Positions 852 to 18,721 of a stretch of DNA of 39,186 nt are shown here, piece after piece. This stretch comes from Candidatus Micrarchaeota archaeon. GTDB taxonomy: Archaea > Micrarchaeota > Micrarchaeia > Anstonellales > J096. Within the stretch, counting starts at the first letter, position 1; every line of letters starts with the position of its first letter. The position numbers and the translations under genes are program-made. The notes below the pieces were generated by a model, which saw only the letters and a list, made by a program, of their open reading frames with translations, was not told the origin of the DNA and made no database searches. Location of the stretch: positions 34,194 through 73,379 of the forward strand of contig JALVSQ010000034.1 in assembly GCA_027024255.1 (NCBI GenBank). The letters run 5' to 3'.

Positions 852-884
852 TTTCTAAATCTCTTTATTTTGTTTTTTATTTTC

Positions 885-3253: not shown

Positions 3254-3285
3254 ATATTAATGTTGGGCAGGAGTTTTTATATCTT

Positions 3286-5235
3286 TTGGACAATAACTGT
3301 ATTGTGGAAAAAAGCCTGCCTGTAATTATAGACCCTGATAAAGAACCATCTCTGCAAGAGGATTTAACCAGGGAAAGAACATATCAGGAGAAGGCAAAGC
3401 TCTATACTTTTATAATCCAGAGTGAAGATGGAACTGCTTTCCTTGAAAAAGTAGGGAAGGGTTTAATTGATGATGAAAAGGAAGGAGTAAATAAAGGTAT
3501 TGAGAGAGTTCGTGCTTTAATGCCTTATATGAGATATGAATGGGAAAGAGGCTTTGTTAGCAAGTGGTATGAGTATTACATAAAGAAAGGTTTTGATAAA
3601 GATAAAGCCCTTGAATTAGCAAATGAAAAGTTGAATGAAGAGCAGTACGGGATTAAGGCAAGAGATCTCTTCTTCATATTTCTTCCTGAATCCTCTGGCA
3701 GGGTTTTTGCTGTATCAAGAGCAGGAGCAAAAGGTCTTTATCAGTTTATGCCCAAAACAGCAAAAGAGTACGGCTTAAAGACAAATAAAGCAGATTACAG
3801 AACTGACCCTTTGAGAAGTGCTTATGCTGCTGGAAAAATGTTTGCAAGCCTGATGATAAAGGGTTATGATATACTAACTTCAACTGTTGCCTACAATGGA
3901 GGAGAAAAAAGGACATTCTTCAAAAAGAGGTATGAGGATTATTTTACTGAGCTAAAGAGGAAGTGCAGGGTTAAAGGTATGAAAGCTATAAATGTGGAAA
4001 ATTTGGAGTATCCAGGAAGATTTGTTGCCACAATCGCCTATCTTCAGCAAAAAAGGCCTGATATTTATGGAATTGAGCCCTTAAAGTTCAGAATTTTGAG
4101 GGTTAAGTTTCCTTCTGAGCTGTTTAAGGCTTACAGAGTAAAGAGAGGTGATACCCTTATCAGGATTGCCCGCTCTTATGCTAGGAATCCAAGACCTCTT
4201 CTTTACTTACTTAAACTGATGTATGGAAGGAGAATAAGAGCAGGCCAGACGATAATGGTTCCTTTGTTGACAGGCAAGGCATTGGTGAGCAAAGTAGAAT
4301 CACTTGTCAGGGAAAGGTTAAAGTCTTTAAGCATTCCTGAAAGTAAAATAGATGCGTTGGTCTCCCTTAACGATGCTCAGATATGGAGTGGGTTTTTAGG
4401 CAGGTATCCTGCTGTTCTGATAATTCCTGAGACTATCCCTGAACTGAAAGGAGCTAAAATAAAAGAAGTAAGGAAAGAAAAGCAGAAAGAAAAACCAGTT
4501 GAAAAGACAGAAAAGGAGAAAATTAAGCCAGAAGCTTTTAAATCAACAAAAACAAAGATGGTTTACAGCGAGGAAGGATATACCATAATTTATCATAGGG
4601 TTTTACCCAGTCAAACACTTTACGGTATTGCTGCTAATTATGGTGTTTCCATAAGAGCAATAAGAAGATGGAACAATTTGAAGAGTAACAGGATATATGT
4701 AGGGCAAGTCCTTATTATTAAATTGGCTGGGAGATGGGAAAGAGTGGGAACTGTTAAGAGAGGTGAAACGCTATTTGGTGTTAAAGTGAAATATGGAAGA
4801 AGGGCAAAGGCTGCTGTGTTGGGTGGTAGCAGCATTATACTTCCAGGTCAACCTGTAATAAGAAAAGCACCCCTTGTTCCAAAGGTTAAGTTAACCAAGC
4901 ATAGAAATGAAAATGTAGTATATAAAGCAAATACAACTTACATTAACCACGTTGTTAAAGAAGGTCAAACACTCTTCAGCATAGCAAAGAATTACGGTGT
5001 AAGTGTTGAAGATATTATAAGATGGAATGGAGTAACTCCAAGGCTTTTAAGGCCTGGCATGGTTCTTACAATAAAGTTGAAAGGTAGATATGTTTTACTT
5101 GGAAAAGTCAAAAAAGGAGATACAATCACCAAGATAAAAAGAAGATATAGAAGTTATAAAGTATTCGTTCTTGGCTATGGCTGGCCTCTTGGCAGAAATC
5201 TAAAGTCAGGAATGCTAATCTACGGGAAGAAGTAG
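3286..5235 (+). CDS. family-1 lytic transglycosylase (SLT domain) fused to multiple LysM repeats
   Basis: All three SLT signature motifs are present in the correct order: catalytic E-S (LPESSG, Glu codon at 3688-3690), GLYQFMP and AYNGG. Canonical LysM repeats lie at about 4132-4263, 4591-4722 and 4942-5076 (e.g. HVVKEGQTLFSIAKNYGVSVEDIIRWNGV...LRPGMVLTIK), plus two degenerate copies. No N-terminal signal peptide is visible. Confidence 0.8.
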   Translation: MDNNCIVEKSLPVIIDPDKEPSLQEDLTRERTYQEKAKLYTFIIQSEDGTAFLEKVGKGLIDDEKEGVNKGIERVRALMPYMRYEWERGFVSKWYEYYIKKGFDKDKALELANEKLNEEQYGIKARDLFFIFLPESSGRVFAVSRAGAKGLYQFMPKTAKEYGLKTNKADYRTDPLRSAYAAGKMFASLMIKGYDILTSTVAYNGGEKRTFFKKRYEDYFTELKRKCRVKGMKAINVENLEYPGRFVATIAYLQQKRPDIYGIEPLKFRILRVKFPSELFKAYRVKRGDTLIRIARSYARNPRPLLYLLKLMYGRRIRAGQTIMVPLLTGKALVSKVESLVRERLKSLSIPESKIDALVSLNDAQIWSGFLGRYPAVLIIPETIPELKGAKIKEVRKEKQKEKPVEKTEKEKIKPEAFKSTKTKMVYSEEGYTIIYHRVLPSQTLYGIAANYGVSIRAIRRWNNLKSNRIYVGQVLIIKLAGRWERVGTVKRGETLFGVKVKYGRRAKAAVLGGSSIILPGQPVIRKAPLVPKVKLTKHRNENVVYKANTTYINHVVKEGQTLFSIAKNYGVSVEDIIRWNGVTPRLLRPGMVLTIKLKGRYVLLGKVKKGDTITKIKRRYRSYKVFVLGYGWPLGRNLKSGMLIYGKK

Positions 5236-5724
5236 TTATTTGTTTTCTCCTTTGTAAATCCCTTCATATCCCTTTACTTCATTACTTAGCTTGAAGAATA
5301 TCATCTGTCCTATTCTTGCATTTCTCTTCAAATAAACTCCGTGCTCGTTCTCAACTATTAGTAGGGCTTCACTCCTTCCTTCATATCCAGGATCCCATAA
5401 AGCAGTTTCAAGTGTTACTCCGCTTCTCAGCAATGAACTTCTTGGCAGGCAGATGCCTGCGATGTTCTCTGGAATTCTAACATACTCGTTGAATATTACC
5501 TTATAAGCCCCTCTTTTCAGAAATACATATCCCCTTTCATCAAACTTTAAGGGCTCAACATCACTTATCTTTCTCTCTTCATTTGTAAAATCAATTCTTC
5601 CAGGAGACTTAAATACATAAACTTCTTTAAGTGTTATGTCAAAGCCTGCTGGCTGGAGCTGCTTTTTTAAATCGATGAAAGAATCTACTATGCCAAGTTC
5701 AACTATCTCTCTATTTGTTAGCAT
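5236..5724 (-). CDS. dut: dCTP deaminase/dUTPase family protein; its size (162 aa) fits an archaeal dUTP diphosphatase
   Basis: Family motifs are present: GFDITL, PRSSLLRSGV and WDPGYEGR. The start overlaps the ndk stop (TAATG-type junction), so it is co-transcribed with ndk. Confidence 0.65.
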   Translation of the reverse strand: MLTNREIVELGIVDSFIDLKKQLQPAGFDITLKEVYVFKSPGRIDFTNEERKISDVEPLKFDERGYVFLKRGAYKVIFNEYVRIPENIAGICLPRSSLLRSGVTLETALWDPGYEGRSEALLIVENEHGVYLKRNARIGQMIFFKLSNEVKGYEGIYKGENK

Positions 5725-6185
5725 TACTCATCACTTGCGTATAGAAAATCTTCATAAGCAAGCCTGTAATCAAACAATTCATCTTCTTTAAAGAACCTCT
5801 TTATTTCTTTTTCGGCATTCTCCTTTGAATCACTTGCGTGTATTAAGTTCTTTGATACACTCATGCTGTAATCTCCTCTTATTGAGCCGGGCTCAGCTTC
5901 CCTTCCATTTGTGGAACCAACAATCCTTCTTACGACATCAACAGCATTTCTCCCTTCAACAACAAGGGCAATTATGGGCATAGAAGTCATAAACTTCTCC
6001 AGATCAGGATAGAAAGGCTTTCCAACATGATGACTGTAATGCTCCCTTGCTTTTTCTTCACTCATCTTCATCATCTTCATTCCCACTATTTTCAATCCCT
6101 TTTTTTCGAACCTGCTTATTATTTCTCCAGCCAATCCTCTGTTTATGGCATCTGGCTTTATAAGAATGAGAGTTCTTTCCCTCAT
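5724..6185 (-). CDS. ndk: nucleoside diphosphate kinase
   Basis: ERTLILIKPDA...RGLAGEIISRFEKKGLKIVGMK and the active-site region NLIHASDS. It sits in the conserved archaeal position downstream of rpl24e. Confidence 0.95.
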   Translation of the reverse strand: MRERTLILIKPDAINRGLAGEIISRFEKKGLKIVGMKMMKMSEEKAREHYSHHVGKPFYPDLEKFMTSMPIIALVVEGRNAVDVVRRIVGSTNGREAEPGSIRGDYSMSVSKNLIHASDSKENAEKEIKRFFKEDELFDYRLAYEDFLYASDE

Positions 6186-6370
6186 TTACTCACCTTTTTA
6201 TGGAACTCTCTGTACTTCTTTGTCCATCTAACTTTTCTACCAACTCTGCCGAGCTTTAACGCGTTCTTTTTGCACTTTGATGAGCAGAAGTAAAACACCT
6301 TTCCATCTGCTTTTACATACATGATGCCTTTGCCTTTTGGAATTTCCTTACCGCAAAAATGGCATTGCAT
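6182..6370 (-). CDS. rpl24e: 50S ribosomal protein L24e
   Basis: CHFCGKEIPKGKGIMYVKADGKVFYFCSSKCKKN zinc-ribbon signature, 62 aa. Confidence 0.95.
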   Translation of the reverse strand: MQCHFCGKEIPKGKGIMYVKADGKVFYFCSSKCKKNALKLGRVGRKVRWTKKYREFHKKVSK

Positions 6371-6374
6371 TTTA

Positions 6375-6581
6375 TCACCTTGCCTTTATCTCCCTTGCCT
6401 CTCTTTCTGTTTCTCTTAAAACAACATACATACCTTTGAATACAGGTCCCTTTATGTTTCTCAGGATAACTCTTCCTTCATCCTTTCCTTCAAGTATTTT
6501 GACCAGGCACTGATAAATCTCTCCGTAAACACCTGTTTTACCTTTTATTTCAATAATCTCTGCCAGATAACCTTCATCCAT
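6375..6581 (-). CDS. rps28e: 30S ribosomal protein S28e
   Basis: [16 protein letters not shown]...[19 protein letters not shown]...[11 protein letters not shown] matches the S28e pattern, 68 aa. Confidence 0.95.
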
Positions 6582-6955
6582 TAGCTTTCACCTTCCTTCT
6601 TTGGTTTTGGAAGTCTTTTTATTACATCCTCTAAACTTTCCTTTGCACTTCCTGCATCAACAACAGCAACGCTTGAAGCAGCCACTTTGAGGCCGGCAGC
6701 GTTTCCCAGTTCCTGCTTTGTGCTTACATAGGCAAAGGGGACTCCTTTTTCCTGGCAGAGCTTTGGTAAGTGCATAACTATCTCCGGTGGGTTAACATCC
6801 TCAGCAATAACAACGAGCAATGCTTTACCTCTCTCAACTGCCTTTGTTGTTTCGTTAACCCCTTTCCTTACCTTTCCTGTTTCAGCAGCAGCTTTCACTA
6901 CATTCACTAAATCCTTCTTTACTTCCTCAGGTGTTTCAAACAATACATAGCTCAT
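6581..6955 (-). CDS. rpl7ae: 50S ribosomal protein L7Ae (K-turn binding)
   Basis: [48 protein letters not shown] prefer the ATG at 6955 (MSYVLFE) because GGTGAGGAG lies immediately upstream. The ORF track starts six codons earlier, at 6973. Confidence 0.93.
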
Positions 6956-7159
6956 CTCCTCACCTCTTTTCATAGGCTCATTGCTAAGGGTTATTTTTAA
7001 GGAATATTTAAAAGCCTTTCTATTTTATTCCTCTAAACTTCGTATTCATAAAAACTTTGGCAAAACTTATCGAGAGATGCCCGTCGGAAAATTACAGAAA
7101 GATTTAAAAACTTTTCCCCTCCAAATTCATCGAAGGAAATATATTCAGAGGTGTGAAAA

Positions 7160-7480
7160 ATGGGAGAAAGAGTAGGAAGAGAAAAGATTAGGAGAGAAGA
7201 AGGATACCTTTATTATGTAGGTAAGGATGGATATGTCTGGGCAGTGCCAATGAGGCACAACAAATACGGCAGAAAGAAAAGAGTTGGAACAGAGAGAATT
7301 GTAAAGCAGGAAGGATACCTTTATTATGTAGGTAAGGATGGATATGTATACAGAGCAAAGATGAACAGAGGAGGCAGGAAAGGAGCCAGGAGAAAGAAGA
7401 GGAGAAAGAAGAAGGCAAAGAAGAAAGCAAAGAAAAAGGCAAAGAAGAAAGCCAAGAAGAAAAAGAAGAGAAGGAGATAA
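7160..7480 (+). CDS. small, very basic protein with two EGYLYYVGKDGYV repeats and a poly-Lys/Ala tail; unknown family
   Basis: GAGGTG Shine-Dalgarno 7 nt upstream of the ATG. An internal perfect 38-nt direct repeat (7199-7236 and 7310-7347) encodes the duplicated motif. The C-terminal 40 aa read RKKRRKKKAKKKAKKKAKKKAKKKKKRRR. Confidence 0.65.
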   Translation: MGERVGREKIRREEGYLYYVGKDGYVWAVPMRHNKYGRKKRVGTERIVKQEGYLYYVGKDGYVYRAKMNRGGRKGARRKKRRKKKAKKKAKKKAKKKAKKKKKRRR

Positions 7481-7490
7481 TTAAACCATC

Positions 7491-7515
7491 TTATTTTTCT
7501 TTTTCTTTCTTTTCT
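7491..7515 (+). terminator. oligo-T tract, a possible archaeal terminator after the basic-protein gene
   Basis: ttatttttctttttctttcttttc lies directly after the stop at 7478-7480. Archaeal termination typically uses T runs. Confidence 0.35.
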
Positions 7516-7521
7516 ATCAAC

Positions 7522-7535
7522 TTTAAAAATATAAA
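7522..7535 (+). promoter_or_regulatory. TATA-box-like element for the giant ORF
   Basis: tttaaaaatataaa is centred about 26 nt upstream of the ATG at 7554, the spacing expected for a leaderless archaeal transcript. Confidence 0.45.
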
Positions 7536-7553
7536 CTTCCTTAATTATAATTG

Positions 7554-10500
7554 ATGAAGAACAGGTTGTTTTTCCTTTTGGCTTTGCTTACAGCACTATC
7601 CTTAGCAACACCTTTGCTTCAAGAAGGCACATCAGTTGATTTGAGTATTTCATCTTTAACAAACGAGCTTAATGTTAGCGTTCTTTACAAAGACATTGCT
7701 ATTCTTTACGATGAGTCTGGTAAGATAATAAAAGTTGACGATAACTCTCATTATTTGAAGGATGCTGTTGTAAAACTTTACTTTTTAGACGAAGATGGGA
7801 AAAAGAGACCTCTTACTGGTTGTCAGCAACTCATTACGAATCTTAAACGAGCAAAGAAGATAGAAATTGTGACTCCTTCAGGACCTACTTATAAGGTTGT
7901 TGATGAGTTTTATGCTAACTGCCATTTTTCTCCTCCTGTTTCAGATGGTTGTGTCCAAATATGGGCTGAGTTTGAAGGTTACATAGATAATAGCAAGGAA
8001 GTTTATCCTCCTTCATCAGGTGTTGGTTTATTTTGCAGGGGTAAATCAACAGTAACAGATATTCTTCCAGGTGTTTTGAACCAGTTTTTATTGAAGCAGT
8101 TAGCCAATCCAAGTCCTGGCTGTTTATCAGCTTTGATAATAATAGGGCTTGCAATGACTGCCTTTTACTACAGATACAAAACTACATTTGCAGGAGTGCT
8201 TGACTTAACGAGGCCCAAGATGCCTATGCCAGGAGAGATGAAGTACAGCTATACAGGCGTTGGTATGCATTCAATTGGAAAAGAGGGTCCAAATACTGTT
8301 GTAAATGCTATGGAAGGCAAGTGGAAGAAGGCATTGAGGAATAAAGGGTTTATTTTGTGGGCAGCGAGACTTGGTCTCTCAAGAGCAAAGCTCAAGGCAC
8401 TTTTTAAGTCAAAAAAGGCAAGTCTTGGTGCCCTTGTTGAACTTTACGAAAGAGGAATTAGTCATGGAGAGGTAAGAAGGCGTTTAAGAAGGTTACTTTC
8501 AGACGATACTGGAGAAGTCGTTTCTGCAATGAGAGAAGTGCACAAGGATGCCTCTGAAGCTATAAGAGCCTATGCAGCTTCAAAACAGGTTTTAGCAACT
8601 TATGGAGGCATTTATGAAAAGAAATCAAGATTTGCTAAGACTGTGTTTAAGGTCATTGATAAAATGAAGAAGGTTCCTGTTCTTAAGCCCCTTACTGTGC
8701 CTTTGAATAGATTTGCCACAGGTGTTCACAGAACATTTAAGCTGAACGCAAGGCTTTTCAGAGATGCCCTTGTTTTACCCCCTTTGCTTAGAAGGAGCCA
8801 GAGGTTCTGGAATTTTGTTACAAAGGCAAAGAGAAGAGGAGGAGGTCTGGGCTTTTTAGCAAAGGTTGCAGAGGGATTTGTCGGACATGAACCTGCTGTT
8901 GGCAAACTATTCTTAATAGATAAATTCTTTGAAGGAGGCGTTCAGACAAAGAGGCTTGAAGAGGCACTTGAAAGAAATCTTCTGGCTATTGCTCTTAAAC
9001 CCTTCTTAGAAAATGTCAAAGTAACAAAAGATCCTAAAACAGGAGAAAAAGTCAATATGGTTGAGCTTTTGTCCCCTGATAAAATAGCAGACCTTTATAA
9101 TGCTGAAACTTTCAAAAATAATCTTGAAAGAGCAATAACTGAGTTAGAAGCTTTAGATTTCAAGAGCAAAGCAAATAATGGTTACAGTGAATACATTGAA
9201 GGATTAAGGAATATAATTCAAAGTGATGAGACGGTTGCTGAAAAGGCAGAGGATATAAAATCCCTTCTTAAAGACTTCTCAAAGACAACAGGCGTTGATA
9301 CAAGCAATGAAATGAAGTATTTAGAGGCATTTAATGCTACATTTGATATGGCATACACACAGTATCAGGATTACTTAAATGCAGAATACGGGGGAGATAG
9401 AAGTAAAGACAATTATCAGGATGTTTTATTTACATTTCTTATGGCTGCTGTTAATGCGTTTGATAAGGTTGCGAGACAGCACTTTAAAGAACTGCCTTTC
9501 TACATAGGAAGGCAGTTTGAATATCTGAGTCACTCAGAGAAGGTATTGCAGGGCATAGCCAACGAGTTTTACAACCTCAATAAAAATAAGGATATGGTAG
9601 ATCAAATAAAGGACTACCAGAAGGCTAATGGAAAAAAGGAAGTTGGCCCTGGATTCAAGGATGCCTTTGGCCTGTTTGCTTTAAAGGAAATAACTGCTGC
9701 TTATGGTTATGTAAGTCCTGAAAATGTTGATTATGCTTATGGAAAAGTAAAGGAAAAAGGATGGGCAGAGGTCTTGTCCAAAGAAGGAAGGGAAGGATTA
9801 AAGAAGATGATGGAAGCTGTAAGGGATGTTTTAGTTAAACGTGTGCTTTTAGATGAATCAAAGTTTGCAGATATTGAAGGAATCATCGACCCTGTTTATC
9901 TCTTCAATAGATATGCGCTTGCAAACTACACCTTACCTGAGGCTGAGGAAGCAGTTAAGAGGGCAAAGGGGACACCTGAGGAAAGAGACATGGAGAAGAA
10001 ACTGGAAAGGTTAAAGCAGCTGGTTGAACAGGTTAGAAGCTTTGGAACAATGAAAGAGGAATTCAAGCAATTTGCAAGAGCTGAGGCCCTTTACAACTAC
10101 ATAGGAAGGGAAGAATCAAATCCTTACATACTTGGAGAATCTGTTGAGAAAATAGGATTTATGATTCCTGTTGTAGGAAAAACAGGTATCGAAGCAGCAA
10201 GAGATAATCCCATTTCAATATATTTCAGGAAAAACGGTCTGGATATAGGCATTGCGCTTGCCAAGGTTGGCATTACAGGTAGCGAAGACATAGAGGGTTA
10301 TCCCAGAAACTTCTATGAGTTCAGTTCCTTAGGTAACCTGCTCGTTGAAAAAACAGGTGTAAGAGAAATACCCATAGGTTTGCCTCCAAAGGAGTTAGAG
10401 AGCACTATTAAAGAACTTGTAAAAAGCAATGAAAAGATAAAGGAATTAAGAAACCAGCCCCTTGGAGAAAGGTTCATAGGGTTCCTTGGCACTGACCTGT

Positions 10501-13500
10501 CCCAAACAAAGTTGAAGGGTATTCTTACACTTTACTCCAACTTCACGCTTGGGGAAGCATCGCAGAACTACTTAACTATTAACAATATGCTTCAATCATT
10601 TAAGCTTTATATAGCAAGAAAAAGGGCAGAATCAAAAGGCACAACTGTTGAAGAGGAACTCAAAACAATAAGCATGGAGGACATCAAGGAGTTCCTGAGC
10701 CATGAAGAGAACAGACTAATAACATTGATGGATTTAGAAAAGGACCAGCTCTTTATGGTAAACAAAGACGGAGATGTTATTCCTTTTGAAGATATTGTTC
10801 TTCCTCAAAAGCAGTTTGTTGATTTTTATGTTGATGCCTTTTATGCAGCAAAGGAGGCAGTTGAAGGTGTTGATTACAGTGCTGAGAAAAATGCATACAA
10901 AAATGCCCTGGATGAGGTTTACAAAGAAATAGGAAAGTACGGTTCATTAAGAAAATGGAGGGAGGCTCATGAGGAAGATAAAAGCATTGTTTCCCTTGGA
11001 ACACCAGAGTATGATAAATTGCTGAATCTGGAAAGCAATGTTAGAGATTTTGAGGAAGTGCTTTCAGGCATGGGTCTTACAGCAGGTATGTGGACAGTTA
11101 GTGCTGGATATACCCCCATTAATCTTGATTACAAGGTTGTTATGGATGGCAAAGTTGTTAACATGCTTGAGATTGAAAAACTGGCAAAGAAGGACATGCC
11201 CAAGGTGGTTGAAGCCCTGGAAACAGAGTGGATGTCACCTGCTGATAAAAAAGCATTGAAGAGGATTATTAAATCTGAAGAGCTTACTCCAAACCAGAAA
11301 TCAGAGCTTGAGAACCTGCTTGAAACAAAGCTTGGCTATTCAAAGGAGGAGGCAAAGGCAATAGCAGAGTTTTTGTCCAATAAAAAGAAGTTGAGAGAAG
11401 AAGCTGAAAGACTTGCAGGGGCTGGGTTTACACTCCTTATGCTTTTATCCGGCAGAATACCTGATTTGAATGAGATAAAAAAAGAGGATAAGGTTGCAAT
11501 TAACCAGCTTCTGGAGAAAATACTGAAAGGTATTCTTCCGAATCCAACCATAGAGAATGTGATCAATCTACTTAAAAGCTCTGACCCTTCCAAGGATGCA
11601 CTTAAGAAGGATATAAAGAATGCTTTGAGAAAGGCAAAGGATGATTTAACAAACCTTGGCAAGTTACCAGATATAATAAAGAGAGCCATAAAGGCAAAGT
11701 TGAGTGTTCTTGATGCTCCTGAATTACTTGACAACTCAAAGCTTCTGGAGCCTTTGCTTGAAAGAGTTGTTTCTAACTGGGCGAGTTTGCCCGAGGCTGA
11801 GAGACAAAGGTTAACAGAACAAGTAACCAATTTCTTGATAAAGGAAGTCAGGGAAAGAAGAGGTGGAAAACCCCTCCTGAGTGATTTACAGTTTAAGTAC
11901 TTAATCAAGGTTGCAAATAGAGAAGTAGACTGGACTCCTGAGGTAAAGAAGGAGATAATGGATATTCAGGATAAGTTGATAAGCATGGGTAGAGAAGATA
12001 TGGCATTCAAGATAGGTAGGTGGATTTCAGATGCCACAAGTGATTTTGATTTAGTGCTCAGGGTAGCAACAGGCAGGAAGGTATTCATGGGCTCAACACC
12101 CCAGGTTAGAAAAAGCATAATCAGAAGGTTATTCTCTAACTTTACCCATGATTCATTGAGAGAAAGTTTAACATTTGCTGCTGATGCTGTTAGTTATTTG
12201 GGCTTTGATTTAGCCAAGCATTTCCTCTACAACATTTATGCGAGACCCTTATGGGAGATGACAGGGCCTGAAATGCTCAACATGCATTACTTACAGGGAG
12301 ATTATTCAAGGGCATGGATGCATGGCATTCTCTACAAAAGATCTCTTTTAGCAAAGGCAAAAGAGGGAAGACTTACAAAAGAAGATAGAAAGGTGTTGTC
12401 TGCTCTGGAAAGATTCTTTACAATTGCAGAATGGCACCAGACAAGAGAGCCGGGCCACATAACCTACAACATGGTTGATAGAATTAGCAGATGGGCCAAG
12501 TTAGCAGCAACATACCATGCAAGAATGAGTCAGTTCCACCCAGCATGGTTTGAAGATATTTACAAGAACTTTGTTCCTTACAGGCATTCAAGCATGGGAT
12601 TTGGTATTATGTCAAGACTTTTAGCTGCGGCATCTTACAGCGCTGCTGTTGTTGGCTCAAAAGCTCAGAGCAGAGCTGTGCTCATGCTTAGAGGTATTAA
12701 CAAATCATTTGCTTATCACACAGGCGTTGATATTGCTTATATAAGAGATAAGGAACTTTTAGATAAGCTGGCAAAAGAGATGGCGAGGAGATATGGGGTT
12801 AGTTCAACAGACAAGGAAAAGATAAGGGCCTTCAGGTCAGCACTTGAAACATACATTTACAGAGGACATATGAGAGGGCCGAAGCATGCTTACATATACA
12901 AGCACAATGTTATTGAGGAAAGAAGAATATTTGATGAGATTGAAGGTATTATGAGGTCCTTACCTTACACAAAGGAAGAGAGGGCCATTCCTGATGTTGC
13001 AAGGGGCCTTTCCCATGTCTTCCAACATGGCCTTGGCTTTCTCACATCAAGCTTCTTTACAATGGCTGCTGGAGCCACATGGCTCAGCTCTGCATTGGGT
13101 CTTGGACCTGTTGGAGGAATTGCTTACATAGGTGCTTCATTGTTAAAGCCCAGGTGGGGATGGTCTTTTGTTGAAAGGGTTGAAACAGGTGTTGCTACAA
13201 GAGGTGGTTCCACACTGGATATGTGGGAGAGCAAGAAAGGAGGGTTAAGCAGATTACTGGGTAAAGTTCTGGGAGTTGGAGTTGGTCCCTTTATGGGATA
13301 TGAGGCAACAGGCATTGCTGATTTGTTTGAAAAGGTTGATGGATTCAGGCCTCAGGCAGCGTTTGCAGGATGGTACACAGGCACATTAGGTGCTTACCAT
13401 GATATTCCTGGCTACATGTATTATCAGTATCCAACAGGTTTGATGGGGTTAGAGCCATGGGTGTTCAGGCAGGGTATATTTGAAAGAGGTTTTGGAGGAG

Positions 13501-14081
13501 AATTTTACACAGGTAGTGAAGCTTATATGTCTTACAGATTATTCCAGCAACACCATATTCCTTTAATGGAGAGGTATTTAGAAGGACTCAAAGAGCTCTC
13601 AGGTTTCGAGCCTTATTACAACTATCCTTATGGATTCTTTTCATACGCTTTATTCCTGCCCTGGCTGGGTTACCTGGCTAATTCTCTGGTTGTTCCCCTG
13701 GCTATGAAGGTAGCCTCTCCTGTGTCAGATACATGGCATGAAGCAAAGGCAAGATGGAGATATGTTTCAAGGGCAAAAAGGTTTGGGTTTGGCTCAGAGA
13801 TGCTGCCTCATGAGGCATCGTCCTCACGAATAGGAGCAGTTACATCTGCATTAAGCCATACAGGTGTTGGCAAAGGTCTTCTTGCTGTTGCTGGAGCAGG
13901 AGCAGCAGTTGGATTGGGGGCCATTAGCCTGGGTGGATTGGCCTTTGGTGCTCAAACACTTCTACTTTCAAGTTATTTAAGAAAAGGAAACTACACATAC
14001 TGCCCTGTTTGTGGAAGAAAGAAACCAAGAGGGCTTCCATGTCCTCATTGTGGATATACTCCTTCAAGCTACATGTTTTGA
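7554..14081 (+). CDS. giant (about 2,175 aa) orphan membrane protein: signal peptide, Cys-containing ectodomain, TM helix, about 1,700-aa helical region, C-terminal multi-TM Gly/aromatic module, terminal zinc ribbon
   Basis: A single uninterrupted ORF of 6.5 kb. N-terminus: MKNRLFFLLALLTALSLA. TM helix CLSALIIIGLAMTAFYY at about 8121-8171. Hydrophobic, Gly-rich segments run from about 13030 to 13980. CPVCGRKKPRGLPCPHCG lies at 14001-14051. I recognise no known catalytic or adhesin domain. The ORF track starts at the TTG at 7551; the ATG at 7554 is preferred. Confidence 0.8.
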   Translation: MKNRLFFLLALLTALSLATPLLQEGTSVDLSISSLTNELNVSVLYKDIAILYDESGKIIKVDDNSHYLKDAVVKLYFLDEDGKKRPLTGCQQLITNLKRAKKIEIVTPSGPTYKVVDEFYANCHFSPPVSDGCVQIWAEFEGYIDNSKEVYPPSSGVGLFCRGKSTVTDILPGVLNQFLLKQLANPSPGCLSALIIIGLAMTAFYYRYKTTFAGVLDLTRPKMPMPGEMKYSYTGVGMHSIGKEGPNTVVNAMEGKWKKALRNKGFILWAARLGLSRAKLKALFKSKKASLGALVELYERGISHGEVRRRLRRLLSDDTGEVVSAMREVHKDASEAIRAYAASKQVLATYGGIYEKKSRFAKTVFKVIDKMKKVPVLKPLTVPLNRFATGVHRTFKLNARLFRDALVLPPLLRRSQRFWNFVTKAKRRGGGLGFLAKVAEGFVGHEPAVGKLFLIDKFFEGGVQTKRLEEALERNLLAIALKPFLENVKVTKDPKTGEKVNMVELLSPDKIADLYNAETFKNNLERAITELEALDFKSKANNGYSEYIEGLRNIIQSDETVAEKAEDIKSLLKDFSKTTGVDTSNEMKYLEAFNATFDMAYTQYQDYLNAEYGGDRSKDNYQDVLFTFLMAAVNAFDKVARQHFKELPFYIGRQFEYLSHSEKVLQGIANEFYNLNKNKDMVDQIKDYQKANGKKEVGPGFKDAFGLFALKEITAAYGYVSPENVDYAYGKVKEKGWAEVLSKEGREGLKKMMEAVRDVLVKRVLLDESKFADIEGIIDPVYLFNRYALANYTLPEAEEAVKRAKGTPEERDMEKKLERLKQLVEQVRSFGTMKEEFKQFARAEALYNYIGREESNPYILGESVEKIGFMIPVVGKTGIEAARDNPISIYFRKNGLDIGIALAKVGITGSEDIEGYPRNFYEFSSLGNLLVEKTGVREIPIGLPPKELESTIKELVKSNEKIKELRNQPLGERFIGFLGTDLSQTKLKGILTLYSNFTLGEASQNYLTINNMLQSFKLYIARKRAESKGTTVEEELKTISMEDIKEFLSHEENRLITLMDLEKDQLFMVNKDGDVIPFEDIVLPQKQFVDFYVDAFYAAKEAVEGVDYSAEKNAYKNALDEVYKEIGKYGSLRKWREAHEEDKSIVSLGTPEYDKLLNLESNVRDFEEVLSGMGLTAGMWTVSAGYTPINLDYKVVMDGKVVNMLEIEKLAKKDMPKVVEALETEWMSPADKKALKRIIKSEELTPNQKSELENLLETKLGYSKEEAKAIAEFLSNKKKLREEAERLAGAGFTLLMLLSGRIPDLNEIKKEDKVAINQLLEKILKGILPNPTIENVINLLKSSDPSKDALKKDIKNALRKAKDDLTNLGKLPDIIKRAIKAKLSVLDAPELLDNSKLLEPLLERVVSNWASLPEAERQRLTEQVTNFLIKEVRERRGGKPLLSDLQFKYLIKVANREVDWTPEVKKEIMDIQDKLISMGREDMAFKIGRWISDATSDFDLVLRVATGRKVFMGSTPQVRKSIIRRLFSNFTHDSLRESLTFAADAVSYLGFDLAKHFLYNIYARPLWEMTGPEMLNMHYLQGDYSRAWMHGILYKRSLLAKAKEGRLTKEDRKVLSALERFFTIAEWHQTREPGHITYNMVDRISRWAKLAATYHARMSQFHPAWFEDIYKNFVPYRHSSMGFGIMSRLLAAASYSAAVVGSKAQSRAVLMLRGINKSFAYHTGVDIAYIRDKELLDKLAKEMARRYGVSSTDKEKIRAFRSALETYIYRGHMRGPKHAYIYKHNVIEERRIFDEIEGIMRSLPYTKEERAIPDVARGLSHVFQHGLGFLTSSFFTMAAGATWLSSALGLGPVGGIAYIGASLLKPRWGWSFVERVETGVATRGGSTLDMWESKKGGLSRLLGKVLGVGVGPFMGYEATGIADLFEKVDGFRPQAAFAGWYTGTLGAYHDIPGYMYYQYPTGLMGLEPWVFRQGIFERGFGGEFYTGSEAYMSYRLFQQHHIPLMERYLEGLKELSGFEPYYNYPYGFFSYALFLPWLGYLANSLVVPLAMKVASPVSDTWHEAKARWRYVSRAKRFGFGSEMLPHEASSSRIGAVTSALSHTGVGKGLLAVAGAGAAVGLGAISLGGLAFGAQTLLLSSYLRKGNYTYCPVCGRKKPRGLPCPHCGYTPSSYMF

Positions 14082-14085
14082 TAGG

Positions 14086-14099
14086 TTTTTAAATATTTT
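14086..14099 (+). promoter_or_regulatory. TATA-box-like element for the 244-aa ORF
   Basis: tttttaaatatttt is centred about 26 nt upstream of the ATG at 14118. Confidence 0.4.
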
Positions 14100-14117
14100 G
14101 TGTTAAATAATGTAATT

Positions 14118-14852
14118 ATGAGGAATTTGTCTACTCAACTACTTAAAGATAAAAGAAACAAAGAATTAAAACCACAGGTTGGGTTTACTAAGATTGGCGA
14201 GACAGAATTCTCTATTAAGTTCAGAAGGGCCAGATTCATAACAAAGAACGGAAGGCCTTTACTCATTCCTTATAAAGAAAGCCCTGTTATTGAAGTCCCT
14301 AAGTTTTCAGGAAATGAAAGAGATGCCCTCCTCTTTGGATTGGCTCTGGCATCATTTGGCACAGAGGTTGATATTTACTTCACAAATGAAGAACTTAGAC
14401 TTAGAGAAGGGTTGTTTAAAGAAGAAGGTGATGGGTTTATATTCAAGGGTATGCATGTCTGGTTTAATGAGGAGTATATGATGAGCGGTTTTTTAAATTA
14501 TACTTGGCATGGAAAGGTGGATTATCTCCTTCTGTTATCTAAAAGGCAGTACCTTATCCGTAATGAAACAAATCCTTATTACTCCTTTATATCAGGTGCT
14601 TTGAGAAAGTTGGCTGAAACACTTGCTAAAGTCTTTTTCAGCCAGGAATTTTTGTTAAGTGAATTCGGAATTAGTAACAATCTTTCATCAAGAACAATGC
14701 TTTACAATGGCTTACTTTCTCTTTTAAGCGAGTTTGACTTAATTGCTCCTGTTGTTGAATGCTCTGTTAAGGATAGCAGAAATGTACTTGTTAGAGTTAG
14801 AGGTTTTACTTCAAAAGGATTAAAAGAAAAGGAAGAAAGTGTTCATCTCTAA
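14118..14852 (+). CDS. hypothetical cytoplasmic protein (244 aa), unknown family
   Basis: A long ORF immediately downstream of the giant gene, with no TM segment and no signal. The ATG at 14118 (MRNLSTQ) is preferred over the GTG at 14100 because of the TATA spacing. Confidence 0.55.
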
Positions 14853-15805
14853 TCCCTTATGCCCTCTGCTGTTACTTTAAACACTACCTCTCTTTCAGGC
14901 AGGTTAGGAGAATCAACAAGTCTGGCAATCCTTTTTTCTTCTTTGCTCTTTCTTAAATAAACCCTGTATGTTGCTGCATGAGCCAGTACATGCCCACCTA
15001 TGGGTGTTGTTGGGTCTCCGAACATAATTGCAGGATTATCCATCACCTGGTTTGTGAAGTAAACAGCCACATTGAATTTATCTGCTATTCTCTGCAATGA
15101 ATGAATATGGGCATTGAGCTTCTGCTGTCTTTCTCCAAGAGAACCTCTGCCTATGTACTCAGCCCTGAAATGGGATGTTAATGAATCAACCACAACGAGT
15201 TTTATAGGCTCTTTCTTTATCAGGTTTTCGAGTTTCTCGACTAACAGTATTTGATGGTCGCTGCTTTCAGCTCTCATTACAAATATGTTTTCAAGCACTT
15301 TTTTTGGGTCAAGCTTTAAAGCCTCGGCCATCTGCTTTATTCTGTCTGGCCTGAATGTGCCTTCTGTATCTATGAATGCAACCTTTCCTTCAAGTCCTCC
15401 TTTTTCAACAGGCAGCTGAACATTAACGCTCAGCTGAAAGCCAACCTGGCTTTTTCCACTGCTGAATTTACCGAAGAATTCTGTTAAGGACTGGGTTTCA
15501 ACACCTCCTCCAAGCAGTTCATCAAGCTTCTTTGAGCCTGTTGTTATCTTTCCTATTGTTTTTCTTCTTTCTAAAAGTTCCCAGCCTGTTGTATAATCAA
15601 CTTCAACAGCATTTTTTGCTGCTTCGATTATCTTCTTTGCCTTTTCAACGCTTATCTCAACTGCCTCAGCCAATTCAAAAGGTGTTGAGGCAGCAATGCT
15701 TGCTACATCTGAATAACCTGCATTGCTGAGCTTCTCTGCAATTGCTGGTCCAACACCAGGCAAATCCTCAATGTCTTTTATGACCTTGTAATTGCTTTTA
15801 GCCAT
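14849..15805 (-). CDS. radA: DNA repair and recombination protein RadA
   Basis: N-terminal helix-hairpin-helix [18 protein letters not shown], Walker [10 protein letters not shown] and Walker [16 protein letters not shown]. 318 aa. Confidence 0.93.
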
Positions 15806-15814
15806 TGTCCCACC

Positions 15815-16072
15815 TCACTGGTTGTTTCTGAAGACTAAAAGCCTTAGCTCACCTATCTTTAGCACATAGAACTCGTTGCCATTTTTGCTTACCTGCTTCC
15901 ACATTGCACCAACAGACCTGTAAACAGTGTTTCCGTTCTGGTCTTTATCTGGCTGTACAACTCTAAACTCAGGTCTTGTTCCACCTTTCTTCTCCACATT
16001 CTCTGTGGTTTTTTCATTGTTTGTCTCTTCAAGACTAACCTCTTCATATCCTTCAAGTGTTTCTTCTGTCAT
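15815..16072 (-). CDS. small protein (85 aa) with an acidic N-terminus and a beta-rich C-terminus, co-transcribed upstream of radA; unknown function
   Basis: The ATG at 16072 is preceded by AGGTGGA. The C-terminal block YRSVGAMWKQVSKNGNEFYVLKIG reminds me of DUF736-type proteins (from memory only). The upstream TTG-initiated extension to 16135 uses GC-rich Gly/Arg codons atypical for this genome. Confidence 0.55.
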   Translation of the reverse strand: MTEETLEGYEEVSLEETNNEKTTENVEKKGGTRPEFRVVQPDKDQNGNTVYRSVGAMWKQVSKNGNEFYVLKIGELRLLVFRNNQ

Positions 16073-16187
16073 GTTTCCACCTGGGCCTTCCCCTCGGCCC
16101 CCTGCTTGCCGCAGGTATTGTTTTGCGCCAAGCAATTCCCTAAGGTTTTTGGTTATATAAAAACCTTTCGGGACATGATTGCCAGTG

Positions 16188-17498
16188 CTAAATAAGGGCT
16201 GGCAATAACAATATTATAAATGAGAGGGTTGTTGAATAGACCAGAAGCTTTGTTATTATTGAGTCTCCAAACACTGCCTTCACAATCATTGAGCCATCAA
16301 ACAGGGCAATGGGCAACAGGTTTATTAAGCCCACAACAGCATTTAAAGCAAAGCAGAGGCCAATGAAAGAGTACATAAAATTCAGGAAGTTGTTTTCGTA
16401 GTATCTGGCTAAATATTCCTTTCCCACATTCATGCATAAGATCCCTATTTTTCCGTTTTCATCTGTTTTTACTGTTATGTCCCCTTTGTTTGTTTTTAAG
16501 TGAAGTGTCTCATTTGGCTTAAATGTGAGATTGCAACATGCCTCTTCATTTATGGAATAAATAACTGTTCCTTTTTGAAGAACTCCTGAAAGAACCATGC
16601 ATCCATCAACGCTGTAATCAGATGTCAGGTTTAAGAAAAGCATGAATACAAGCCCAAACAGAATTCCCAGCACTATATTGGCAAATGGACCTCCTGATGC
16701 AATCCTTACTTTGTTTTTAGGAGATGAGGCTGAGAGCCTTTTTTCATCAGGTTCAACAAAGGCACCAACAGGCAATATTCCAAAAAGAACGAGGCCTGAG
16801 CTCTTTAAAGGAATCTTTGCTAATGCCATTTGAACTGCATGGCTTCCTTCATGCACAATCAGCACAACAGCTAATGCAAGTATTCCTTCAACCAAGGGTA
16901 TATTTATGCCAGGTAGAATAAGGGTTGCTCCTTGATTTACTTTCTCTCCTCCATTTACAAAGTAATCAATTAATTTAATTGTTGTGTGAAGAGCTGATGA
17001 AATTATTGAGATGTAAGCAGTTCCCATCAGGCCTGTTGCATATGGAATAATGAGGAGGTGAGCAGGAGGTGCCTTTACCTCTTTGCTCATTGCACCCATA
17101 CTTTCTGTTAAAAAAGATATGGAAAAGGGGTAAAGGAATAAAATCATGGATATTAAAATTGCTGAAATTATGAAAATTACTATTCTGTATTTTAGCGGTT
17201 TCCATTTGAGAAACTTTATAACAAGGAGCCCCATCACAACACCAAAGCCTAAGTCTCCTATAAACTCCCAGCCCTTCCATCTACTTATCCTGCTAAAAAA
17301 GCTTCTTCCCTTTCTGCTTTTTAACAGTATAAACCCCATCTCTGTTTCAAGGTTGTACTTCTCTTTGAAATAGTGGCCCGATATAATTAAAATGACAGCT
17401 GTAAGCACAAACTTTATCAATCCAGTATAGGAGCTGTTTATTATGCTTACGAAAAGTATTAATGTGCCTATAATAACCGCATAGTCCTTTAAATCCAT
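16188..17498 (-). CDS. site-2 protease family (M50) intramembrane zinc metalloprotease with a PDZ-like insert
   Basis: HExxH motif (VHEGSHAV) in a TM helix, the second signature NLLPIALFDGS, and multiple TM segments. The ATG at 17498 (MDLKDY) is preferred over the track start at 17555, which overlaps the upstream gene. Confidence 0.85.
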   Translation of the reverse strand: MDLKDYAVIIGTLILFVSIINSSYTGLIKFVLTAVILIISGHYFKEKYNLETEMGFILLKSRKGRSFFSRISRWKGWEFIGDLGFGVVMGLLVIKFLKWKPLKYRIVIFIISAILISMILFLYPFSISFLTESMGAMSKEVKAPPAHLLIIPYATGLMGTAYISIISSALHTTIKLIDYFVNGGEKVNQGATLILPGINIPLVEGILALAVVLIVHEGSHAVQMALAKIPLKSSGLVLFGILPVGAFVEPDEKRLSASSPKNKVRIASGGPFANIVLGILFGLVFMLFLNLTSDYSVDGCMVLSGVLQKGTVIYSINEEACCNLTFKPNETLHLKTNKGDITVKTDENGKIGILCMNVGKEYLARYYENNFLNFMYSFIGLCFALNAVVGLINLLPIALFDGSMIVKAVFGDSIITKLLVYSTTLSFIILLLPALI

Positions 17499-17523: not shown

Positions 17524-18348
17524 TTAATGGTTGCTATACAAAAGCAAAAATACAATTATGGTTGCCAGGAATACAAGGGATAGGGTTAAATAAAGTAGAA
17601 TAATATTTGTTTTTCTTATTCTTTTATCAAGGCCGTAGATATAGTTAAACTCTATTTTACCTCCATATGAGACCTCTCTCTTATTCCTCAATGCATCTTC
17701 GAAAGAAATTGTGATTAGTATGTCTTCATAATGCTTCAAGTCAGGCAGCTTAAATGTTTTCTCCATTCCTTTGTACAATTCTCCAATTTCAAACATAAGC
17801 TCCTTTGTTTCCTGTCTGCCTATTAAGGCAACCTTTATTTTTCCATTCCTTATTTCATCACCTTTATTTAAAACAGTCATGAAATACTCTCTGGATAGCA
17901 GACCCTTCTTTGATAAAATAATGCCTATTTTTGGCCTTGTGAATATATGCCTCAGCATCTCTTCTTCCTTTTCAATCTTTGCCTGCACATCTTCAAGTTC
18001 CTTTTTCTTTTTTTCATACTCTTTTTTTGTTTTTGAAAATGATTTCTCAAGGGACATCATGCTGTCTCCTATGGCTTTTAGCCTGTCCGAAACAATTTTG
18101 AGTTCTCCAACCATTCTTTCCAGTCCTGTTTCTATCTTTTCATTCATTTCTTTTAATGCGTCTATCTGTCTTTGAGTGCTTGACCTCATCTCTTCAATCT
18201 CAACTCTGGATGCAGCATAAACCAAAATTACACCCAAAAGCAGATTTATCAATGAGTCAACAACATCAAAATAAGATGGAAGGAACACCTTTACAATCAC
18301 AAGTAAGAGCAGTAGAGGGATTGAGAACTTTATTACATCCTTTATCAT
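17524..18348 (-). CDS. membrane protein with two N-terminal TM helices, a long coiled coil, a beta-rich domain and a C-terminal TM helix; unknown family
   Basis: Hydrophobic N-terminus (FSIPLLLLLVIVKVFL, LLLGVILVYAA), a K/E-rich heptad-like region of about 90 aa, and a C-terminal LYLTLSLVFLATIIVFLLL. It starts 4 nt after the preceding pilin-like gene. Confidence 0.6.
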   Translation of the reverse strand: MIKDVIKFSIPLLLLLVIVKVFLPSYFDVVDSLINLLLGVILVYAASRVEIEEMRSSTQRQIDALKEMNEKIETGLERMVGELKIVSDRLKAIGDSMMSLEKSFSKTKKEYEKKKKELEDVQAKIEKEEEMLRHIFTRPKIGIILSKKGLLSREYFMTVLNKGDEIRNGKIKVALIGRQETKELMFEIGELYKGMEKTFKLPDLKHYEDILITISFEDALRNKREVSYGGKIEFNYIYGLDKRIRKTNIILLYLTLSLVFLATIIVFLLLYSNH

Positions 18349-18352
18349 TAAC

Positions 18353-18721
18353 TCACCCTATTTTTACGCTTCCGTTTGGCAGAGAGCTTATTATCACATT
18401 TTTATTTATACTCTCTACATATGTGAAGTTCAGGGAGTTTGCAGCTGCCTTTAGCTTTGATGTGTTGACATCTCTTACTATTGCACACACAACCTCTCCA
18501 TCCACATTCCTTTTATTTTGCTCGTAACAGGCTGTTATAAGAGCCTTCAATCCTTTAACTGAAATATCAGAACCGTCTATTATCAACTCAGATTGTTTGA
18601 ATTCCTTTGATATGGACTGCTCTGCTTTTTCCTGAAGTATGCTGAGCAGTGATAACAGAAGGGAAAGAACTGCAATGGCAATAACAACCCTTACGATTGT
18701 TTCAAATGCAATTTCAGCCAT
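18353..18721 (-). CDS. pilin-like protein (122 aa): N-terminal hydrophobic helix and a small Cys-containing globular domain
   Basis: MAEIAFETIVRVVIAIAVLSLLLSLLSIL at the extreme N-terminus. It overlaps the upstream pilin-like gene by 8 nt and lies in the pilus operon. Confidence 0.6.
   Translation of the reverse strand: MAEIAFETIVRVVIAIAVLSLLLSLLSILQEKAEQSISKEFKQSELIIDGSDISVKGLKALITACYEQNKRNVDGEVVCAIVRDVNTSKLKAAANSLNFTYVESINKNVIISSLPNGSVKIG

Follow-up and report, generated by a model that had tools for sequence, protein, structure and literature searches.

A very rare, uncharacterised family of giant membrane proteins encoded in Micrarchaeota

We analysed a stretch of 39,186 nucleotides from a Candidatus Micrarchaeota archaeon (assembly GCA_027024255.1, contig JALVSQ010000034.1, positions 34,194 to 73,379 of the forward strand), called the window below. 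A single gene of 6.5 kb in this window encodes a predicted membrane protein of 2,175 amino acids (aa), hereafter the giant. Sequence comparison makes the giant the first member to be seen at full length in an uncharacterised and very rare family of membrane proteins of about 2,200 aa. The reading that we prefer, with a probability of about 0.4, is that of a receptor-like transmembrane scaffold whose mass would lie mostly in the cytoplasm. Our claim is a modest one: a new uncharacterised protein family, and not a demonstrated new system.

The gene and its family

The frame is open from a TTG at 7551 or an ATG at 7554 to the stop at 14079-14081, giving 2,176 codons without a stop, and the start of both full-length homologs aligns with the ATG at 7554. 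GC content and skew are smooth across the gene. The contig L002 of the ENA database is 100% identical to positions 45-16728 of the window, the giant gene included, and is on this evidence from the same population. An independent assembly, L001, encodes a second full-length member, P0002, which is 77% identical to the giant (75% at the nucleotide level). The two proteins are colinear, with largest indels of 5 aa. Their comparison by the Nei-Gojobori method gave a dS of about 1.9, which is near saturation, a dN of 0.15 and an overall dN/dS of about 0.08, with values of 0.04-0.15 in each resolvable 200-codon bin. Because the ratio is low in every resolvable bin, the whole 6.5 kb appears to be coding sequence under purifying selection. 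The colinear 77% copy in an independent assembly and a dN/dS of about 0.08 throughout argue that the gene is not an artefact. Thus the single 6.5-kb open reading frame (ORF) of the initial annotation, uninterrupted and intact in independent assemblies, is by its sequence a genuine gene; the possibility named there, that it might be an assembly artefact, is effectively refuted, the gene being found intact at full length in three diverged sequences.

Relatives were searched with an exhaustive HMMER profile search, the C-terminal 1,186 aa of the giant serving as query against 1.84 billion cluster representatives. Five proteins were recovered, namely the giant itself, P0003 (E=1e-30), P0004, P0005 and P0006. 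P0003 is a distant full-length relative, and the other three (217-276 aa, on contigs of 0.7-2.4 kb) are C-terminal fragments. The full-length members are similar in size, with 2,175 aa for the giant, 2,169 aa for P0002 and 2,221 aa for P0003. A word-indexed search with the full-length query matched the giant itself and P0002 only; with the N-terminal 975 aa, or with a six-sequence alignment of the conserved C-terminal part (C-module), this search missed even the queries' own entries, so that its negatives are unreliable. A rescan of the JGI metagenomes with patterns from the conserved motifs gave a sole match, L085, which is a near-identical copy of P0003 from another sample. Scans of genome contigs, metagenomes and viral sequences with patterns derived from the giant and P0002 found nothing. 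The protein had been taken for an orphan, a description that these results overturn: a small family exists, made of the giant, P0002, P0003 with its copy L085, and P0004-P0006.

The features that define the family were confirmed for this set of sequences, of which P0004-P0006 are C-terminal fragments. In the N-terminal part (N-module) they are a signal peptide, a beta ectodomain with four Cys, a transmembrane (TM) helix opened by a Cys and a juxtamembrane KY..T..GMH. The C-module is recognised by TRxPxH...SR..K.A.T, three hydrophobic segments (A, B and C), the motifs RPxxAF / IPG / GxxPxYN and a terminal CPxCGxxKxxGxxCPxCG.

The contigs that carry family members range in GC content from 27% to 52%, so several diverged lineages are represented. 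The gene context of P0003 is archaeal housekeeping (Alba, Lhr, CarS and IleRS). The Lhr encoded beside P0003 is closest to that of L004, a metagenome-assembled genome (MAG) whose RadA is 75% identical to, and among the closest of, the RadA of the window. On the most divergent contig, L082, two ORFs were observed (1-987 and 1005-1763), the membrane module and zinc ribbon (252 aa) forming the separate second one. The preceding ORF is colinear with the conserved motif region and the break falls just before segment A, which reflects a true splitting of the gene or else a frameshift error of sequencing.

The RadA of the window was compared with 185,579 species-representative genomes: nearly all of its closest matches belong to Micrarchaeota MAGs, the best one at 83% identity, which, together with the RadA, L7Ae, S28e, L24e and ThrRS (archaeal editing domain) of the window, places the organism in the Micrarchaeota (DPANN). 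In 78 RadA loci, almost all of them from such MAGs and covering 10 kb on either side, no relative of the giant was detected by tblastn or with the family profiles. Large ORFs of 1,500 to at least 1,874 aa were observed a few kb from RadA in L011 (15293-20914, - strand), L046 (15226-19749, - strand) and L058 (14613-19076, - strand). Cys-rich repeats make up one of them, and the other two abound in Ser/Thr and contain repeated beta-type modules. These proteins look like classic surface proteins and were rejected as relatives of the giant, to which they are unrelated.

Scans of Pfam, NCBIfam, PHROGs and PADLOC with the full length and segment by segment gave nothing informative: matches to PHROGs all had E>=0.06 and PADLOC returned none for the giant. 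Queries of the PDB, made with the giant sequence by itself and with a profile for each of the two modules, retrieved only zinc-ribbon noise. tblastn against 50,697 phage and 72,556 plasmid records gave no match, and no relative was found on viral contigs. In the literature on Micrarchaeota or DPANN giant proteins we found no account of the family. Over its length the giant matches generic zinc ribbons only, which upholds the initial statement that it belongs to no characterised family. Since nothing known resembles the giant, the family appears new at the protein-family level.

Conserved ends, interior and topology

The features of the giant gene and its immediate flanks are listed in Table 1.

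Table 1. Positions of the features in the window, with the corresponding residues of the giant
Feature	Position	Strand	Residues and remarks
106-aa very basic protein	7160-7480	+	two EGYLYYVGKDGYV(W/Y) repeats; C-terminal poly-Lys/Arg tail of ~35 aa; no Pfam family
TATA-like box TTTAAAAATATAAA	7522..7535	+	read from the sequence; ~20-30 nt 5' of the ATG
Coding sequence of the giant	7554..14081	+	2,175 aa plus stop; 245 kDa; pI 9.1
Signal-peptide-like N-terminus	7554..7622	+	1-23; MKNR, then hydrophobic core
Ectodomain (predicted)	7623..8114	+	24-187; acidic, pI 5.2; all-beta; Cys 90/123/133/161
TM helix 1 and juxtamembrane stretch	8115..8282	+	TM helix 188-208 (8115-8177); juxtamembrane stretch 209-243
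Lineage-specific interior	8283..11828	+	244-1425; pI 8.7; K/E/L/A-rich; Cys-free; repeat-free
Cytoplasmic part of the C-module (predicted)	11829..13028	+	1426-1825; pI 9.8
Most conserved family motif EWHQTREPGHITYNMVDRISRWAKLAATYHARMSQFHPAWFED	12429..12557	+	1626-1668
Hydrophobic segment A	13029..13148	+	1826-1865; 40 aa; central Gly/Pro; recurs in P0002, P0003 and P0004
Gly/aromatic-rich loop	13149..13634	+	1866-2027; G 16.7%; Y+F+W ~19%; pI 5.6
Hydrophobic segment B	13635..13703	+	2028-2050; aromatic-rich; weaker in P0004
Basic B-C linker	13704..13871	+	2051-2106; net charge +4 to +5
Hydrophobic segment C	13872..13982	+	2107-2143; Gly/Ala-rich; GxxxG-type spacing
C4 zinc ribbon (predicted) CPVCGRKKPRGLPCPHCGY	14001..14057	+	2150-2168; CPVC-x9-CPHC at 2150-2166
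T-run / TATA-like TTTTTAAATATTTT	14086..14099	+	between the stop of the giant (14079-14081) and the next ATG (14118)

The C-module is shared between clades. Residues 1426-2175 of the giant align with residues 1560-2221 of P0003 with an hhalign probability of 99.9% and about 27-31% identity, and BLASTP aligned residues 1481-2175 at 27% identity. One stretch is almost invariant between the two proteins, EWHxTREPGHITYNxxDRxSRxAKLAxT...SQxHPxWxED, and the core common to all members is TRxPxH..Y...D..SR..K.A.T. In the most divergent fragment, that of L082, the core TR.P.H/SR/K.A.T is kept and the Glu and Trp-His are lost. The loop between segments A and B holds the motifs RPxxAF, IPGxMY, LEPW and GFEPxYNYPYGF (GF/YxPxYNYPY across members). 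Between the giant and P0002, dN/dS over the whole C-module is about 0.04.

Segment A could form one span or a helical hairpin. Segment B has a Wimley-White octanol sum of -11.3, and segment C is weakly hydrophobic in P0004. At the extreme C-terminus, two CxxC knuckles form a ribbon that is predicted to bind zinc. Its four Cys and the residues K2156, G2160, P2164 and G2167 do not vary among the six family sequences; at position 2151, five have Pro and P0006 has Ala. The ribbon scores 14.7 bits against Zn_ribbon_3 (cut-off 27) and 12.5 against DZR (cut-off 27.3), and it matches ribosomal L32 chains with E=0.004. An AlphaFold2 (AF2) model of the C-module built from six sequences had a predicted local distance difference test score (pLDDT) of 39 and was unusable; DSSP assigned mostly helix to it.

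At the other end, residues 5-23 reach a Kyte-Doolittle peak of 1.99 in a segment common to all three full-length members, and we infer that the signal peptide is cleaved. Residues 32-243 of the giant are 33% identical to P0003 (BLASTP), the TM helix being also conserved. Five Cys (90, 123, 133, 161 and 190) are invariant in three clades, the last of them opening the TM helix, and the juxtamembrane motif IIGLAM..FY.RY.T...P.P...KY..T..GMH...K is likewise conserved in three clades. The AF2 model of residues 1-260, built from three sequences, had a pLDDT of 53, with residues 25-161 all-beta at block values of 56-82. Searching the PDB with this moderate-confidence ectodomain model using Foldseek gave a best E-value of 1.2e-3, Ig-like matches at 6.5e-3 or worse and TM-scores of at most 0.45. 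From the model, the ectodomain is probably a small disulfide-bonded beta-sandwich.

The interior behaves differently between and within clades. Residues 244-1425 of the giant and about 250-1560 of P0003 were not alignable by BLASTP or hhalign, and a Smith-Waterman comparison gave a z-score of only about 4, on one K/E-rich stretch. P0003 has ankyrin repeats (Ank_2/Ank_4) at residues 1001-1087, within its interior; the giant gave no Ank match segment by segment at E<=10 and is not an ankyrin-repeat protein. Within the clade of the giant and P0002, dN/dS of the interior is 0.05-0.11, with the best conservation at residues 600-1100 (about 0.05). The sequences therein indicate an interior that is swapped or diverged between lineages and conserved within the clade. 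The interior contains 10.9% K and 9.9% E. BLASTP self-comparison detected no internal repeats, three coiled-coil-like stretches of about 30 aa each were found, and a crude score slightly favours helix in the interior, which is weak evidence. A scan for Walker A, HExxH, GxSxG, HKD and similar motifs found none that is kept from clade to clade; the sole Walker A-like string, located in the ectodomain, is missing from P0003.

To place these regions relative to the membrane, net charges were compared in all three full-length members. They are -2 to -4 for the ectodomain, +30 to +81 for the interior, -3 to -4 for the Gly/aromatic-rich loop, +4 to +5 for the B-C linker and +5 for the tail. No Cys occurs between residues 191 and 2149, where the Cys frequency of the 17 annotated window proteins would predict about 8.5 (Poisson P ~2e-4). 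The signal peptide and TM helix 1 are strongly hydrophobic in all full-length members. Owing to the charge pattern, the Cys distribution, the ankyrin repeats of P0003 and the basic pI, a cytoplasmic location is favoured for the interior and the zinc ribbon. Two models of the C-module remain. In the first, segment A would cross the membrane once, the loop would lie outside, segment B would return and segment C would form a hairpin or an interfacial element. In the second, segment A would be a hairpin and the whole C-module would lie on the cytoplasmic face.

The architecture proposed in the initial annotation is largely borne out. The signal peptide (hydrophobic residues 5-23, present in all full-length members) and the beta-looking ectodomain with four Cys and a fifth opening the TM helix (Cys invariant in three clades, all-beta in the AF2 model) are both recovered, the TM helix placed at 8121-8171 coincides with residues ~188-208 (8115-8177), and the terminal zinc ribbon is found as CPVC-x9-CPHC with weak matches to Zn_ribbon_3/DZR and ribosomal L32. 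Scans of Pfam and NCBIfam and of motifs agree with the statement that no enzymatic, adhesin or SMC motif is recognisable. Other elements stand in part. The K/E-rich composition of the interior and its lack of repeats are as described, but its helical nature comes from a crude propensity and a low-confidence DSSP assignment; coiled-coil-like stretches are present, but they are only three and short. The multi-TM module is represented by three moderately hydrophobic segments that recur in the family (~1826-1865, 2028-2050 and 2107-2143) and that may not all be true spans. Similarly, charge, Cys, ankyrin and pI support the idea of two membrane anchors and a mass held in the cytoplasm in outline, without fixing the detail of the C-terminal spans.

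Functional readings and neighbouring genes

The giant gene looks independently transcribed. The TATA-like box 5' of it recurs unchanged, TTTAAAAATATAAA, at the same distance in L001, despite the two loci being only 75% identical, and a comparable box, TATTTAAAAAG, precedes P0003. Read from the sequence, the box points to an own promoter and a leaderless or short-leader mRNA. The T-run after the stop codon is plausible as a terminator plus promoter of the next gene. Given a TATA-like box upstream and a T-run after the stop, the gene looks monocistronic.

The genes for L7Ae and the small basic protein are located upstream of the giant gene both in the window and in L001. The basic gene is 94% conserved 5' of P0002, absent beside P0003, and 64% conserved in L019, a Micrarchaeia genome, where it lies at an unrelated position; its product may be nucleic-acid-binding. 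Downstream, the 244-aa gene (14118-14852, + strand) has no family match and shares only about 26% identity with L001 7304-7738, and it is unrelated to the 259-aa gene downstream of P0003. A conserved partner gene was therefore rejected: the downstream genes differ and the upstream basic gene is clade-specific. As no partner gene is conserved, the giant would act as a single protein and not as part of a multi-gene system. Accordingly, we abandon the term system, under which the gene had first been reported, and neither of its flanking genes (7160-7480 and 14118-14852), put forward as possible conserved neighbours, is one across the clades compared (L001 and P0003).

CarS (CDP-archaeol synthase) directly adjoins the giant-family gene in L081, where it is upstream and co-directional (3731-4213, + strand), and in L082, where it is downstream and convergent (1764-2219, - strand). 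The two CarS proteins are 38-42% identical. No CarS is encoded in the 39-kb window. This adjacency is a weak lead towards membrane-lipid biology.

In the scaffold that we prefer, the N-terminal TM helix and the C-terminal hydrophobic segments would sit in the same cytoplasmic membrane, probably packed together. A small acidic head, the putative Ig-like domain possibly joined by the Gly/aromatic-rich loop, would be exposed outside. The polypeptide between the two ends, about 1,600 aa that are basic and Cys-free, would be closed into a large cytoplasmic loop and would serve as a lineage-adaptable docking platform, coupling the cell surface to cytoplasmic partners. The zinc ribbon would offer a docking point at the inner face of the membrane. 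To judge from its sequence, the giant is without recognisable enzyme or motor.

Several points weigh against this scaffold. Its function is deduced purely by inference: no homology was found, the structure models (pLDDT of 39 for the C-module and 53 for the N-module) are not usable, and no partner gene is conserved. The strong purifying selection within the clade argues that the interior is more than a spacer. The interior could hold an unrecognised enzyme, and the conserved polar motif could be catalytic. That TM helix 1 packs against the C-terminal segments is deduced solely from the fact that both ends are conserved together, and the number of C-terminal spans would differ between the two models. 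Moreover, the exhaustive search covered the C-terminal 1,186 aa, the N-terminal half being covered by the word-indexed search alone.

A bolder version, which we hold to be doubtful, would make the giant the founder of a novel class of archaeal machines for coupling across the membrane, with a small extracellular head, a novel membrane module and a lineage-rebuilt cytoplasmic platform of about 180 kDa. The platform would organise a host-contact site or an internal membrane-associated structure, or would gate a new giant-footed channel, and the folds of the C-module and the interior would have no known counterpart.

The first rival is, by architectural analogy, a giant-footed channel or transporter, in which the C-terminal segments of several subunits would form a pore gated by the cytoplasmic mass and the zinc domain. 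The conserved C-terminal membrane module indeed has a Gly/Ala-rich segment with GxxxG-type spacing, it is followed directly after its last hydrophobic segment by the zinc ribbon and preceded by a large basic cytoplasmic region, and the membrane part is better conserved than the interior. However, the hydrophobic segments are weak, two of them being barely hydrophobic in P0004, and Pfam, NCBIfam and the PDB gave no similarity to a channel or transporter family. Oligomerisation is unsupported, and the parallel with RyR concerns architecture only. We consider a channel unlikely.

Improbable too, in our judgement, is a membrane-bound enzyme acting on envelope lipids or glycans, with the C-module as a new catalytic domain and the rest of the protein in regulation or targeting. 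This would give a meaning to the invariant polar cluster (T, R, P, H, Y, D, S, R, K) beside the membrane segments, to the strong purifying selection over the C-module (dN/dS ~0.04) and to CarS directly adjoining in the two diverged lineages L081 and L082. But no enzyme family was matched and no classical catalytic signature is conserved; the Glu and Trp-His of the motif are lost in L082; the orientation of CarS differs between L081 and L082 and CarS is absent from the window. Such an enzyme would also leave about 1,400 aa of extra protein without explanation.

The basic interior (pI 8.7-9.8) and the weak likeness of the zinc ribbon to the RNA-binding ribbon of ribosomal L32 (E=0.004) would suit a membrane tether for the nucleoid or for a filament, that is a cytolinker or a scaffold for segregation or division that binds through the ribbon or the interior. 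In the clade of the giant, the upstream neighbour is very basic with a poly-Lys/Arg tail, and RadA is nearby. Against a tether, which we find quite improbable, long coiled coils and NTPase motifs are lacking, no SMC-, Cdv- or FtsZ-related protein was matched (CdvA at E=9.4 being noise), and the basic small gene is not beside P0003, the neighbourhood differing between clades.

An extracellular adhesin or host-interaction protein, with most of the polypeptide outside and a TM helix 1 that is not a true span, appears very improbable. Giant surface proteins are common in DPANN archaea (PMC10266531) and occur near RadA in L011, L046 and L058, and the giant does possess a signal peptide and a Cys-free interior. 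The surface giants of these three loci, however, look wholly different, being Cys-rich or Ser/Thr-rich, whereas the interior of the giant is basic and without Ig, FN3, beta-helix or Ser/Thr-rich repeats. Moreover, TM helix 1 shows strong hydrophobicity and is conserved, as is the basic juxtamembrane stretch after it, the interior of P0003 has ankyrin repeats, and the zinc ribbon requires a reducing cytoplasm.

Finally, an artefact (assembly chimera, fused ORF, pseudogene or mobile-element cargo gene) could be suspected because all family members derive from metagenome assemblies and because, in the divergent L082, a stop codon and a change of frame set the membrane module apart in its own ORF. 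This reading is effectively refuted. Three diverged sequences, each from an independent assembly, have the full-length ORF unbroken, and a fourth sample has part of it; purifying selection is uniform, GC content and skew are smooth, the flanks are housekeeping genes, and phage, plasmid and viral-contig searches gave no match.

The rest of the window is mainly devoted to housekeeping functions: RadA, L7Ae, S28e, L24e, NDK, dCTP deaminase, L1/L10, enolase, proteasome alpha and a ThrRS with an archaeal editing domain. It also encodes a type IV pilus-like ATPase with a platform protein, and an SLT+LysM murein hydrolase. No tRNA or Rfam feature was detected in the 39 kb. The hydrolase (3286-5235, + strand) is a lytic transglycosylase of bacterial type with three LysM domains, and suggests either that the archaeon interacts with bacterial peptidoglycan or that the gene was acquired horizontally. 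The ATPase (T2SSE family, 677 aa) and the platform protein (T2SSF family, 496 aa) belong to a type IV pilus-like or archaellum-like cluster (17524-22816, - strand); three small ORFs without family match, located 3' of the platform gene on the same strand (17524-19055), could encode pilins. Directly 5' of RadA lies a gene of 85-106 aa (15815-16135, - strand) that is found beside RadA at 47-65% identity in about 20 Micrarchaeota genomes. Its sole family match is a sub-threshold one to DUF736, and it may be a conserved partner of RadA in Micrarchaeota. A ThyX of 522 aa (36211-37779, - strand), has two Thy1 stretches and roughly double the normal length, as if a flavin-dependent thymidylate synthase had been duplicated or fused.

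Significance and comparison with known systems

Spending 6.5 kb on one gene under strong purifying selection in a tiny DPANN genome implies an important role; assuming a genome of about 1 Mb, the giant gene would occupy about 0.6-1% of it. DPANN genomes not uncommonly encode orphan giant proteins, so that the present one is less surprising than it might seem. To our knowledge, the well-described DPANN giants all place their mass outside the cell, to reach the host. The family described here seems to be built the other way round: both ends, close to the membrane, are conserved, and the very large interior varies between lineages. If the proposed topology is true, it would be a new archaeal way to link the cell envelope and the cytoplasm. 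At the domain level, two new families would be added, the N-module and a C-module of about 750 aa with its terminal zinc ribbon. With five clusters in 1.84 billion representatives, seen only in Micrarchaeota or on unassigned archaeal contigs, the family is rare. This rarity limits its generality, yet makes it a sharp lineage marker.

Some known systems resemble a part of the giant only. Its recognisable parts are the terminal zinc ribbon and a probable Ig-like sandwich, both of them generic. The C4 zinc ribbons (Zn_ribbon_3/DZR, L32) share the CPxC-x9-CPxC knuckles with its extreme C-terminus, but its matches to them are below the curated cut-offs, and a ribbon of about 20 of 2,175 residues is uninformative on overall function. 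Ig-like sandwiches (such as DsbD-alpha, VNAR and CD160) were the best Foldseek matches of the ectodomain and indicate a fold class at best. Bridge-like lipid-transfer and AsmA/TamB proteins are built of repeating beta-groove units behind an N-terminal membrane anchor. The giant is likewise a large protein with such an anchor, and membership was rejected: there is no AsmA/TamB/VPS13/Chorein match in Pfam, no repeat, and the interior is K/E/L/A-rich. Membership of the SMC/Rad50 proteins was rejected on the lack of a conserved Walker A, of long coiled coils and of an SMC match in Pfam. Of the roles put forward in the initial annotation, a cell-cell bridge and a division or segregation apparatus stay conjectural, and a role like that of SMC is made less likely by the lack of both long coiled coils and NTPase motifs. 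Nor does the giant belong with phage, plasmid or defence proteins, having no match in phage and plasmid records or PADLOC and none of note in PHROGs.

In general plan, the giant can be set beside eukaryotic membrane-anchored cytolinkers and giant-footed channels (nesprins, junctophilins and RyR/IP3R), where a small membrane module anchors a cytoplasmic part that is very large and for the most part not enzymatic; RyR has in addition a zinc-binding C-terminal domain after its last TM helix. The big predicted cytoplasmic region and small membrane module of the giant are alike, as an architectural analogy only. The giant differs from these proteins by the absence of homology and of spectrin or SPRY repeats, by having both ends at the membrane, and by its N-terminal signal peptide, ectodomain and TM helix. 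No cytoskeletal partners are known for the archaeon that encodes it.

Among DPANN proteins, the comparison to make is with the nanohaloarchaeal SPEARE proteins (such as SVXNc_0300 and BNXNv_0298), which have 8,900-9,400 aa and a pI of about 4. Outside the cell they extend a huge array of tandem Ig/fibronectin-like repeats, inside it they carry an ATPase resembling VirB4/TraG, and the gene next to theirs encodes a VirB4-like ATPase (PMC10266531). As in SPEARE (PMC10266531), a giant single gene of a DPANN episymbiont encodes a membrane-anchored protein in which a Sec signal peptide is followed by an Ig-like domain, a tentative one in the giant. Membership was rejected, since Pfam and NCBIfam gave no match to Ig/FN repeats or to AAA/VirB4 and the neighbours are the 106-aa basic protein and the 244-aa unassigned protein. 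The giant has a pI of 9.1 and only about 160 aa predicted to lie outside at its N-terminus, and it differs further in having no repeats, no ATPase, no conserved neighbour and no sequence similarity to SPEARE. Its distribution of mass would be the opposite one, mostly cytoplasmic by prediction.

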